Shown here piece after piece: positions 2,031 through 64,000 of a stretch of DNA of 64,000 nucleotides. The stretch comes from Eledone cirrhosa (Eukaryota), in contig OZ024765.1 of assembly GCA_964016885.1 (NCBI GenBank), forward strand, positions 16,058,001 through 16,122,000, written 5' to 3'. A program made the translations under genes and the position numbers. The notes below the pieces were generated by a model. The model worked only from the letters and a program-made list of their open reading frames with translations. It had not been told where the DNA came from and made no database searches. Positions within the stretch are counted from its first letter, which is position 1, and every line of letters starts with the position of its first letter.

Positions 2031-2403
2031 GGAAAGTTATATTTAAATTGTTGGGTTACAACTAGTAAATATTTATAACTGATATAAAAGCACTCGACAA
2101 GTATTTGGAGTATATTTACAATATTAAATAAATGGAAACTATATTTATAAAACCATATTTATTTCATTATATATATTTCAGGGATATCATATTAACAATA
2201 TGCTATGCCTTCCTCTGCCAATTCAACTTTTCAAATACAAGTCGATGTTGTTACGGTATGTCAAATCTATTTATCTATAAAACTGTTTATATTGTATTTT
2301 GTCTGAGGAAGGCATAGCATATTGTTAATATGATATCCCTGAAATATATATAATGAAATAAATATGGTTTTATAAATATAGTTTCCATTTATTTAATATT
2401 GTA
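2031..2403. mobile_element. Fold-back hammerhead element in (TA)n (PLE pLTR-like)
   Basis: 99-bp inverted arms 2117-2215 / 2305-2403. The left arm is extended by a tail (2031-2116). Both ends abut (TA)n. Confidence 0.75.
2295..2360 (+). ncRNA. Minimal type I hammerhead ribozyme
   Basis: tattttgt-CTGAGGA-stem II (aggcatagcatatt/aatatgatatccct)-GAAA-TATATA-TA|atgaaata. Stem III is the palindrome ATATATAT. Confidence 0.75.
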
Positions 2404-2444
2404 TATATATATATATATATATATATATATATATATATATATAT

Positions 2445-2553
2445 GAACAAGTAAGACCCCGACGGCTGAGCTCAAGCCGTTTCGACGGCTAATTCTGAAT
2501 TGAGTACTTTGGTGCGTTATGGTCCACCTGGTTCCTTACCACATTTCCTTCGT
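2445..2553. mobile_element. Short inverted/forward element, same family as 22339-22478 and 24836-25194
   Basis: 2445-2497 is the reverse complement of the family body and 2500-2553 is the forward tail. Flanked by (TA)n. Confidence 0.7.
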
Positions 2554-2579
2554 TATATATATATATATATATATATATA

Positions 2580-2702
2580 AGCAAAAGGGATATTCAATGT
2601 GTTGGTAATTCAACAAATATACATGTTTATAACAGATTCAAAGCACTCGACAGTTTTTCTGGAGTATAATATTCAATGATATTAAATAAATGCAAACTAT
2701 AT
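2580..2702 (-). mobile_element. Solo tail fragment related to the 2031-2403 family
   Basis: Reverse complement carries TACTCCAG...TCGAGTGCT and resembles 2031-2140. Confidence 0.55.
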
Positions 2703-3000
2703 TATATATATATATATATATATATATGTTTGTGTGTGACTGTGTGTATATACACACACAATTATAATGACAGGTACGCAGATGAAGAGACACAGTTGCA
2801 TAATTTCATAAAAACGTACACATATATAAGTAAAAGCATACACACTATCAATTATACATCCGTACATACGTAGAATCATACATACTTACATATTGTTTGT
2901 GTACACACACACACACAAACACATACAGACACACACACATATATATATATATATATATATATATATATATATATCAATATATATATATATACATATAAAG

Positions 3001-3187
3001 GGCGGTGGATTAGCAGTATCGGTAGAGAGTCGGACACCATGCTTTGAAGCATAGAGTTTCGGCCCTTTATGATCTAAGTTCAAATTCCGCCGAGGTTAAC
3101 TTTGCCTTTCATCCTTACAGGGTCGATAAAGTAAAGTACTAGTAATGTACTGGTTATTGCTGGCCTTGAGCCAAAAGTAGAAACAAA
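3001..3187 (+). mobile_element. SINE family 1 copy
   Basis: GGCGGTGGATTAGCAGTATCGG head, AAGTTCAAATTCC B box, GTAGAAACAA tail. Confidence 0.85.
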
Positions 3188-3189
3188 TA

Positions 3190-60299: not shown

Positions 60300-60410
60300 G
60301 GCGGTGGAACGTCAGTATCGGTAGAACCGCAGACACCATTTGAACTCAGAACGTAAAGGGCCCTAACTCTATGCTGTAAAGCATGTTCTCCGACGCTCTA
60401 CCGATACTGA
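60300..60410. mobile_element. Rearranged SINE family 1 heads in inverted orientation
   Basis: A plus-strand head CAGTATCGGTAGA is joined to a minus-strand head ending TCTACCGATACTG. Confidence 0.6.
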
Positions 60411-60952
60411 TAATGCAAATAATAGATTTTTTTTTCTTTACTATAAAACTTTTCGATGGCCTCATTAGCCTGATGAGCGGATTCTCAATACAGAAACACT
60501 TTATTCCATTCCTAAGAACATTTTATCTTCATCTGTGTAAATGATGTAGCATACGTTTTCTTTTTTCCTTTATGCTCGTTTTGTATATTTTAACTTTATT
60601 CACAGCTTGTGAAATAAATGGGAAGAAAGGGAAAGAAAACATGGAGTCGTTCATTGATTGTTGGGAGTCCCAAACGGCATCCATGTCAAATTTTAAATTA
60701 TGAAGGTGAATAATTTTAAATAGCAGGATCTACAGCTGGGTTTTAAACATACTCACACACACACGCGCGCGCACACACACACACACGCACGCACGCACGC
60801 ACGCACGCACACGCACATGCACACACACACACGCGCACGCATATTTACACAAAATCAACAAATGGAGGTACCCTGAAAATCCCATATCTCAGGAACACGT
60901 GGTCCGATTTACGCGAAACTTGTTTTATTCCATTTGTATTGCCATTTCAGAG

Positions 60953-62575
60953 GCAACTTCCTTTCAAAGTATTTTTCCCATTATGCGTCCTTTTGACTGT
61001 ATTACATTACAGACAAGCAAGCAAGCAAACCAGCAACCAATCAGAGAGTTTTAGTAGTATATAGATGTGTAACCCTACTTCAGGGTCAACTTCCTTTCAA
61101 AAGAATTTTCCCATTATGCGTCATTTTGACTGTATTACATTACAGACAAGCAAGCAAGCAAACCAGCAACCAATCAGAGAGTTTTAGTAGTATATAGATG
61201 GGTAACCCTACTTCAGGGTCAAGTCCCTTTCAAAAGTATTTTCCCATTATGCGTCATTTTGACTGTATTACATTACAGACAAGCAAGCAAGCAAACCAGC
61301 AACCAATCAGAGAGTTTTAGTAGTATATAGATGGGTAACCCTACTACAGGGTGAACTTCCTTTCAAATGTATTTTCCCATTATGCGTCCTTTTGACTGTA
61401 TTACATTACAGACAAGCAAACCAGCAACCAATCAGAGAGTTTTAGTAGTATATAGATGTGTAACCCTACTTTAGGGTCAACTTCCTTTCAAATGTATTTT
61501 CCCTTTATGCGTCATTTTGACTGTATTACATTACAGACAAGCAAACCAGCAACCAATCAGAGAGTTTTAGTAGTATATAGATGTGTAACCCTACTTTAGG
61601 GTCAACTTCCTTTCAAATGTATTTTCCCATTATGCGTCCTTTTGACTGTATTACATTACAGACAAGCAAGCAAGCAAACCAGCAACCAATCAGAGAGTTT
61701 TAGTAGTATATAGATGTGTAACCCGTCTTCAGGGTCAACTTCCTTTCAAAAGTATTTTCCCATTATGCGTCATTTTGACTGTATTACATTACAGACAAGC
61801 AAGCAAACCAGCAACCAATCAGAGAGTTTTAGTAGTACATAGATTTGTATCCCAACTTCAGGGTCAACTTCCTTTCAAAGTATTTTCCCATTATGAGTCA
61901 TTTTGACTGTATTACATTACAGACAAGCAAGAAACAAACCAGCAACCAATCAGAGAGTTTTAGTAGTATATAGATGGGTAAACATACTTCAGGGTCAACT
62001 TCCTTTCAAAAGTATTTTCCCATTATGCGTCATTTTGACTGTATTACATTACAGACAAGCAAGCAAACCAGCAACCAATCAGAGAGTTTTAGTAGTATAT
62101 AGATGTATAACCCTACTTCAGTGTCAACTTCTTTTCAAAAGTATTTTCCCATTATGCGTCCTTTTGACTGTATTACATTACAGACAAGCAAACCAGCAAC
62201 CAATCAGAGAGTTTTAGTAGTATATAGATGTGTAACCCTACTTTAGGGTCAACTTCCTTTCAAATGTATTTTCCCATTATGCGTCATTTTGACTGTATTA
62301 CATTACAGACAAGCAAGCAACAAACCAGCAACCAATCAGACAGTTTTAGTAGTATATAGATGTGTAACCCTACTTTAGGGTCAACTTCCTTTCAAAAGTA
62401 TTTTCCCATTATGCGTCATTTTGACTGTATTACATTACAGACAAGCAAGCAACAAACCTGCAACCAATCAGAGAGTTTTAGTAGTATATAGAGGTATAAC
62501 TCTACTTCAGGGTCAAGTTCCTTTCAAAAGTATTTTCCCATTATGCGTCATTTTGACTGTATTAAATTATAGATA
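60953..62575 (-). repeat. Tandem satellite, unit about 123-131 bp, about 13 copies, with variable (GCAA)n
   Basis: The minus strand of the unit reads ATCTATATACTACTAAAACTCTC...(GCTT)nGTCTGTAA. Confidence 0.95.
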
Positions 62576-63111
62576 ATGTAATACAGTAGGAGGTAATCAC
62601 AGAGTTTTTGCAATATATTGATACATATATTTCTTGGCTTTTTTCAGTCATTTTATTCTCAATCTTCAATTTATACAGCTTCGCTTTCAGAGGTAAATGC
62701 AAATATCTAAATGATCATCTTCACTCACGTTACTAACAATGCATATATTTCAAAAGTTACTTGTTAAACCGTCTAGATGAGAATAATTACTCGCTAAGAT
62801 AAACTTGTAGACATCTGAATATATTTTTATACGTCATCCCCGAGATTCTAAAACATACGCATTGTACATATAGTTCCGATAAATATATATATATAAATAT
62901 ATATATATATATGTAGATAACATATGTATATATATGTGTTTGTCTCTCTCTCGCTATATATATATATATATATATATATACATATATACATATATATATA
63001 TATATATATACGTATCTCTCTCTCTCTCTCTCTATATATATATATATATACGTATGTATATATATATATATATAATATAAGATCAAAAGATGGTTAAAGG
63101 AGTTCAATATA

Positions 63112-63178
63112 TTTTATTATGCGCATTTCAAAAACAAACATCATCAAACAATAATATTTGTGTTTTCATCAGATAAAA
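63112..63178 (-). ncRNA. Minimal hammerhead ribozyme (inverted arm)
   Basis: Reverse complement of 63333-63399. Confidence 0.8.
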
Positions 63179-63332
63179 CAGGAGAACATGATATGAAGGC
63201 TAAAAAAAACACTTGTTGATAGTGCAGTTTTAAATCAACATATCATGTTGATTTAAATCAACATATCATGTTGATTTAAAACTGCACTATCAACAAGTGT
63301 TTTTTTTTTAGCCTTCATATCATGTTCTCCTG

Positions 63333-63399
63333 TTTTATCTGATGAAAACACAAATATTATTGTTTGATGATGTTTGTTTTTGAAATGCGCATAATAAAA
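63333..63399 (+). ncRNA. Minimal type I hammerhead ribozyme
   Basis: ttttat-CTGATGA-stem II-GAAA-TGCGCA-TA|ataaaa. Confidence 0.82.
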
Positions 63400-64000
63400 T
63401 ATATTGAACTCCTTTAACCATCTTTTGATCTTATATTATGCATACTCCAGTCCCACAAACTGTAGAGTGCTTCTTATCCGATATCTGCATTGCTTTATTG
63501 TACTACAATAAAACTCACCTCCTACATATATATATATATATATATATATATATATATATATATACGTATGTATATATATATATATATATATATATATATA
63601 TATATATACGTATGTATATATATATATATATATATATGTATATATATACGTATGTATATATATATATATATATGTATATATATACGTATGTATATATATA
63701 TATATATGTATATATATACGTATGTATATATATATATATATATACACATATATATATACGTATGTATATATATATATATATAATATATATATATATATAT
63801 ATATATATATATATATGTAACATATATATATATATATATATGTAACATATATATATATATATATATATATAATATATATATATATATATATATAATATAT
63901 ATATATAACATATATATATATATAATATATATATATATATATGTATAATATATATATATAACATATATATATATATAATATATATATATATGTAACATAT

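Follow-up and report, generated by a model that had tools for sequence, protein, structure and literature searches.

Truncated Penelope-like elements in TA microsatellites of Eledone cirrhosa pair one internal with one tail end: a probable case of twin priming on one RNA

The stretch of Eledone cirrhosa DNA analysed here, 64,000 nucleotides long and referred to as the window (C26:16058001-16122000 in the 3.0-Gb genome; positions below are counted from its first letter), has a GC content of 31%, is dense in TA microsatellite and carries ten insertions that belong to 5'-truncated Penelope-like elements (PLEs) of the endonuclease-bearing (EN+) type. An earlier note, made from the sequence of the window alone, had located them correctly to within a few bases, and (TA)n is present on both flanks of each. 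With I denoting the internal end site, T the tail end downstream of I, and pLTR (pseudo-long terminal repeat) used as for PLEs, our alignment pipeline classed all ten as one I plus one T end, in agreement with the claim that the downstream end of the element lies at both junctions; the left arm is always inverted and the right arm direct. One arm does run further than the other, albeit by 54-99 nt and not by the 50-110 nt first given. Arms may or may not overlap, as had been noted: they do not in the insertions at 2445 and 40722, and at 59458 the overlap amounts to only ~34 nt.

The ten insertions group in seven families, A to G. Family A (Hydra clade) is represented by 2031..2403, composed of a T arm (2031-2221, minus strand) and an I arm (2215-2400, plus) with a hammerhead-like core at 2303-2344 (plus), and by 26113..26528 from another subfamily (I arm 26112-26267, minus; T arm 26276-26527, plus). 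Family B comprises 2445..2553, where an I arm (2445-2503, minus) beginning at the presumed RNA 5' end is followed by a partial tail arm (2499-2553, plus), and 24836..25194 (I arm 24837-24972, minus; T arm 24974-25194, plus). The family C insertion (Hydra clade), 32992..33390, consists of I arm 32993-33148 (minus) and T arm 33148-33390 (plus), with hammerhead-like cores at 33054-33084 (minus) and 33201-33231 (plus). Family D (Hydra clade) contributes 40722..40980, in which a tail-only arm (40722-40814, minus) meets an I arm (40811-40978, plus) that starts exactly at the presumed RNA 5' end, and the symmetric palindrome 63073..63524 (I arm 63075-63243, minus; T arm 63268-63522, plus), where both arms end at this presumed 5' end and an extra G precedes the left arm. 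In family E the T arm (42259..42664, minus) contains tail and pLTR (42259-42575) and then jumps into an inverted 90-nt piece of open reading frame (ORF; 42575-42664); the I arm (42665..44462, plus) carries a 5'-truncated ORF for reverse transcriptase (RT) and GIY-YIG endonuclease (EN) at 42665-43927, then 3' untranslated region (UTR) and a pLTR that has a minimal hammerhead core at 44308-44322 and stops at I (44458). Families F (Hydra-like) and G (Hydra-like ORF start) are found at 45750..46658 (T arm from 45745, minus, with a deletion of ~30 nt; I arm 46384-46657, plus) and 59458..59751 (short I arm 59455-59491, minus; T arm 59534-59754, plus), respectively. Single arms not listed in the earlier note lie at 2580-2702 (family A, minus), 22340-22477 (B, plus; its start falls exactly on the family B 5' stop site described below), 39152-39262 (F, plus) and 32885-32948 (C, plus). 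Lopsided palindromes of this kind, with a tail of ~60 nt, also characterize an eighth family, which is found at 25251-25371 of the window, at L062:529-796 and in many copies in other loci.

Judged by their motifs, all families except E would be Hydra-clade or Hydra-like, and family E would be of the Neptune or Nematis type. Family E matches the Pfam domains GIY-YIG (2.7e-06) and RVT_1 (0.0019), possesses GxKF, DKG, a CX4CxxC linker (clade criterion CX2-5CxxC) and CCHH, and has numerous intact frames of 775 aa, which frequently stand in tandem or head-to-head. Two family D proteins gave no Pfam match; RT and EN motifs were recognized by alignment in families A, C and D, and those of the RT part only in B and F. 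DKT occurs in A, B, D and F and RW followed by R or T in A, B and D (this region is not covered for C and G), without GxKF/Y, as expected for Hydra elements with their DKT and RW(K) motifs. The CxCX5C linker and an EN with CxxC and CxH but lacking CCHH are present in A, C and D, the EN regions of B, F and G being only partly seen. Element bodies measure ~3.5-3.7 kb and have long 3' UTRs. Sense direction follows from ORF linkage in families A to F, and in family G from the single read-through copy that links it to a Hydra-like ORF start. Read-through and tandem copies (pLTR from partial tandems, with tail) exist in A, B, D, E and F; a read-through copy was looked for in family C and none was found. 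A putative hammerhead motif lies shortly upstream of I in all seven families (by pattern scan in A, C, D and E, by eye in B, F and G, with a changed core in F); an Rfam scan showed no hammerhead among the best 150 of 861 matches, a list filled by microsatellite matches to microRNA models.

Some longer copies deserve mention in their own right. Full family E copies (L279:5500-9161) have two overlapping frames of 476 and 775 aa, the overlap containing a slippery-type T run in the right phase for a -1 ribosomal frameshift, and the 775-aa frame is present in most of the 100 best copies. Family B forms head-to-tail arrays of full units with a period of ~3.54 kb (G000:C1:91476601-91487262 and C1:437200348-437210975). 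At L278:1485-4570, a T arm and an I arm of family G enclose a different RT-bearing element, which was either captured or came in by a later insertion.

Depending on the family, the genome contains 661 to 38,524 exact matches to 18-31-mers taken from the arms, against none for the reversed controls, and pattern searches with the families other than E returned arm matches by the thousand, often a minus match followed by a plus match 60 bp to 5 kb away. For the junction analysis 475 genomic loci were fetched and merged into 349 stretches (1.52 Mb), and each arm end running into microsatellite was placed on the family reference. The loci were mostly first matches on contig 1, and some were chosen for length, for an apparent I+I layout or for the base preceding the 5' end; the anchor sequences sit upstream of I, so that I+I and T+T pairs are caught at least as well as mixed ones. 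Each of the seven families shows two sharp junction peaks, with I-to-T distances of 89-91 (A), 79-80 (B), 98-99 (C), 86-88 (D), 54-55 (E), 89-90 (F) and 78-80 nt (G). Both ends lie at I or T in 265 of 280 pairs, the other 15 having an end at neither site, and these 265 two-armed insertions comprise 251 mixed I+T, 8 I+I and 6 T+T pairs. The mixed type prevails in every family (A 25/26, B 85/88, C 15/16, D 72/77, E 12/14, F 25/26, G 17/18), and its excess over the at most 50% expected under independent end choice is highly significant (p = 1e-57). This ceiling applies because I and T are similarly frequent genome-wide in family D (11,451 T ends versus 12,765 I-pattern matches, the latter inflated by read-through in one subfamily). 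Only 2 of eight family D loci picked as apparent I+I layouts were truly so. The T arm is on the left in 136 and on the right in 115 mixed pairs. Single-armed copies exist as well, 45 true single arms ending at I in 21 and at T in 24 cases. Together with the linkage of arms to PLE ORFs, the sharp peaks bear out the proposal that a stereotyped route gives rise to these PLE ends; the pairing rule is one for two-armed insertions and not for all copies.

The earlier note had offered two routes, fold-back synthesis of the second strand and twin priming on both nicked strands, and arm lengths distinguish between them. Arm-length classes were set for 161 pairs of families A to F, 147 of which could be resolved and 14 not: 69 are symmetric, 24 have the longer T arm, 31 the longer I arm and 23 a tail-only T arm. 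The arms thus stop independently of each other, and in 54 of the 147 pairs (31 + 23), including 42259 and 40722, the I arm holds sequence that is absent from the T arm. Fold-back can yield only an arm whose sequence the first arm already contains, and these pairs contradict it as the general route; an I arm with private sequence implies that both arms were copied from RNA. At the same time the two arms of an insertion are near-identical in diverse families, median differences within versus between insertions being 0.000 versus 0.126 in A (13 pairs), 0.023 versus 0.085 in B (21), 0.007 versus 0.039 in D (40) and 0.015 versus 0.048 in E (8), which points to one RNA or one source copy per insertion.

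Most mixed pairs are short, 182 of the 251 measuring at most 500 bp. Palindrome centres cluster upstream of I, at 167 nt in family D, 58 nt in B and ~70 nt in F, and symmetric palindromes are centred on one site per family with junction letters that differ each time, so that they must have arisen independently. At this 5' stop the first non-reference base is G in 49 of 76 arms, compared with 36 of 185 at other 5' ends (p = 5e-12; families B, D and F; control computed with profiles); genome-wide, the counts for family B are 5,528 G and 903 A, 6,431 in total. The extra G is present also where the partner arm cannot supply it. The stop site reads pyrimidine then A, the initiator pattern of RNA polymerase II. 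An untemplated 5' G is accepted as a sign of cap copying in L1, where it is used in combination with pyrimidine-A in the same manner (PMC9341517). The extra G would accordingly mark a sense RNA, and the short palindromes may be regarded as cDNAs for which the 5' pLTR copy of a capped sense RNA was the site of priming; addition of an untemplated C at any blunt RNA end would look alike and would equally imply a fixed RNA end. It had been suggested that the route serves PLEs and short derivatives. The PLE part stands, whereas the short copies resemble run-off products of RNA from the autonomous elements themselves more than they resemble non-autonomous families in their own right. We also considered that the short palindromes end at the hammerhead cut site and rejected this, their stops lying upstream of or inside the motif; family B short copies begin inside the hammerhead and so are without its core. 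In two further places (L403/L404 and L436) we observed chains of short units, each reaching from the presumed RNA start to inside the ORF start, which suggests template jumps after run-off.

A similar pair of motifs follows a few bases downstream of I in families A, B, C, D, F and G, and a similar pair is found at a like distance after T in read-through copies of A, B, D, F and G. It is the motif sequence that the two sites share; an associated hairpin fold remains a prediction, and MAFFT combined with RNAalifold yielded no structure for ten hairpin regions, which were misaligned.

Independent data speak for the reality of the junctions. When raw restriction-site-associated DNA sequencing (RAD-seq) reads of three other samples are mapped on a read-through copy of family D, they turn into TA at the T site (L078:2845-2847) and at the I site (2930). 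They also contain opposite-strand joints, in one of which a tail-only arm is connected with the 5' stop (2879 to 3106); the joints rest on 1-3 read starts each and hence on few loci. In this family the hairpins are not confined to the assembly, a possibility that had been raised as fatal to the proposal. Among the window insertions 32992 was tested for a spanning read or contig: neither a read on 32453-33655 nor a contig spanned it, and no empty allele was seen, TA repeats being skipped in mapping, so that this locus is without independent confirmation. Paralogous empty sites, where found, carry an unbroken alternating tract (~6 informative among 273 pairs); in these cases the summed flanking repeats are longer than the empty paralog, and a target-site duplication is unreadable inside (TA)n. 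The idea that insertion creates the TA tract finds no support, as empty paralogs already have one (in one instance of only 8 nt).

Taken together, we think it probable that these 5'-truncated PLE insertions arose by twin priming, with two fixed start sites on a single capped sense RNA. The enzyme of the element would nick a (TA)n tract on both strands, and the free ends would each prime reverse transcription at a different fixed site of the same RNA. Both cDNAs would then extend in the direction of the RNA 5' end, with the I cDNA displaced by the T cDNA in most cases. Their 3' ends would be joined through microhomology of 0-6 nt or through a few extra bases, each cDNA serving as second strand of the other. 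Long arms that include ORF sequence would result from priming on the 3' pLTR copy of the RNA. From the 5' pLTR copy the arms would be short, running off at the cap, and would be joined as palindromes of 150-450 bp; if one of the primings failed, the copy would be single-armed. According to PMC11167929, both strands are nicked and extended in vitro by a PLE protein, which starts internally at two sites that delimit the tail and is predicted to form a dimer. A more specific picture, put forward tentatively, is that the Hydra clade practises programmed twin priming: a dimeric RT-endonuclease may grip two tandem RNA signals, the cDNAs may complete each other without a separate second-strand step, and tens of thousands of short palindromes in this genome may represent cap run-off that maps the transcription start of each family to the base.

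Several observations weigh against twin priming on one RNA as the full account. The 14 I+I and T+T pairs need another path, and 276 of 836 ends are unpaired. In an earlier set with 261 unpaired ends of 777, 45 were single arms, 57 ran past the reference and 37 had no upstream repeat in the locus, the rest being 16 whose short partner belonged to the other class, 2 with a same-class partner, 90 unresolved and 14 at neither site. Among long family E copies 12 of 20 are without an inverted partner; the same family lacks the extra G (0/4 at its modal end) and the motif pair after its sites. The locus sample is not random. Arm identity hardly separates within from between insertions in the old families C, F and G, and could also stem from gene conversion. 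The predicted downstream hairpin occurs after I in 5/7 families, in the intended register after T in 1/7 copies, and also in 2-53% of shuffles, which makes the structural test a weak one. In vitro no difference in start site was seen between the strands (Frangieh et al., PMC11167929). Finally, T-arm stops do not pile up at I (11, 11, 16, 16, 12 and 5 in 20-nt bins from -50): only 50 of 251 T arms end in the tail or no more than 15 nt beyond I, so that the other 201 require strand displacement or a second RNA. PLE RTs are not known to possess RNase H.

The second RNA forms the basis of an alternative in which both strands prime on two RNAs held by an asymmetric dimer, one subunit being forced to I and the other to T. 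It accounts for the 201 T arms that pass I without pile-up, and template jumps between RNAs do occur (junction at 42575; L403/L404). Yet arms match even in family A, where copies differ by 12.6%, so that both RNAs would have to stem from one source copy, and an enforced asymmetry on separate RNAs is without known reason; we regard this explanation as unlikely. About as unlikely is copying from T only, with the endonuclease later cutting one arm at the AT-rich I and thereby resolving the intermediate, as suggested in PMC8557442. Cutting of always one arm would give the strict asymmetry, I sites are indeed AT-rich, and a preference of the PLE endonuclease for an ATT motif in its own pLTR is reported in PMC11167929, but the same source maps RT starts in vitro to both tail boundaries, I and T are about equally frequent as ends of single arms, and the motif pair follows both sites, its copy after T lying outside any cDNA.

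Target-primed reverse transcription in one event from T, after which the cDNA folds back, or else self-priming on an antisense template (PMC3846280), could produce an inverted, near-identical arm and would suit the 69 symmetric pairs, several with short palindromes at their centres. The 54 pairs with sequence missing from the first arm refute it as general route, the extra G marks sense RNA, and symmetry is also explained by both arms reaching one RNA end, some centres carrying the extra base on both arms. As the origin of these insertions at large it is quite improbable, a minority contribution being conceivable; of the two routes in the earlier note twin priming is thus the one we favour. 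That the short palindromes are miniature inverted-repeat transposable elements (MITEs) of DNA transposons, or assembly artefacts, is barely credible: they are short and numerous and have inverted arms and TA flanks, but their ends are asymmetric, their centres are heterogeneous, total lengths are continuous from 70 bp to >5 kb reaching into RT ORFs, and raw reads of other samples carry the junctions. The symmetric terminal inverted repeats and uniform length of MITEs are absent, and the arms link to RT ORFs.

The kind of element and its layout are known, and what is added here is a sharper, testable mechanism. With the Hydra clade of C-terminal EN+ PLEs as described in PMC8557442 (Craig et al., 2021), whose supplement names a cephalopod family Hydra-1_Obim, our families share RW, DKT, the CxCX5C linker, absence of CCHH, CxxC plus CxH, hammerhead motifs and (TA)n targets; they differ in their longer bodies (generally <3 kb in that source), long 3' UTRs and very high copy number, and end pairing is not treated in its passages on the clade. 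Inverted pLTR, one-sided tail and TA preference have been published, an inverted head-to-head 5'-truncated copy with a tail often at one end only being described for EN+ PLEs (PMC8557442, PMC3846280) and close hammerhead pairs on opposite strands in PMC4209133. As this layout is a published hallmark of PLEs, and six of the seven families belong to or resemble one clade, the regularity across dissimilar families is less unusual than the earlier note held. Compared with the published layout the tail is longer (54-99 versus 30-40 nt), pairing has been counted (95%), and tail-only arms and palindromes stopping at a presumed capped start are present. Poseidon PAc in vitro (Frangieh et al., 2024; PMC11167929) likewise shows nicking and extension of both strands, two internal starts bounding the tail and an AT-rich target, whereas it belongs to another clade, no strand bias in start site was seen, the second-strand step is left open and, in the parts concerned, pairing within single insertions is not dealt with. 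L1 twin priming, as outlined in PMC9148063, works alike without being the same: two target ends prime one RNA, which results in a 5' inversion with the downstream ends pointing outward, the geometry seen in 40722, but in L1 the first primer sits on the poly(A) tail, the second site is internal and variable, and a minority of insertions is concerned, whereas here neither end has poly(A), the two sites are internal as well as fixed, and overlap of the arms is the usual case. Non-LTR retrozymes are also short hammerhead-bearing repeats related to PLE pLTRs (bioRxiv 10.64898/2026.07.22.740005); as presented there they are tandem and proposed to be non-autonomous, whereas the present insertions are inverted and end at I and T. 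A literature search, with key older papers outside it, found neither strict end pairing nor tail-only arms nor cap G for PLEs; the I+T pairing (251/265), private I-arm sequence (54/147) and one-site stops with extra G were thus not found in print.

PLEs are the closest retroelement relatives of telomerase. PMC8557442 and PMC11167929 both treat the way in which their inverted copies, tailed on one side, are made as an open question. Our data narrow the options: fold-back and antisense self-priming cannot account for one third of the resolved insertions, the RNA that was copied has the look of a capped sense transcript, and each of the two start sites serves one arm. The existing in vitro PLE assay (PMC11167929) makes the mechanism testable. 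Many palindromes that resemble MITEs in genomes of this sort should be entered as PLE ends.

Besides PLE insertions, the window contains broken pieces of reading frames resembling the RT of long interspersed elements (33720-34695, minus strand, and ~35050-35620), the former interrupted by a long TA tract where its relative in L277 has continuous coding sequence. Minisatellite tandem arrays are found at 8464-9071 (unit of ~64 nt), 17415-19357 (~61 nt), 47440-48141 (~117 nt), 50040-51474 (~57 nt) and 60932-62622 (~130 nt).

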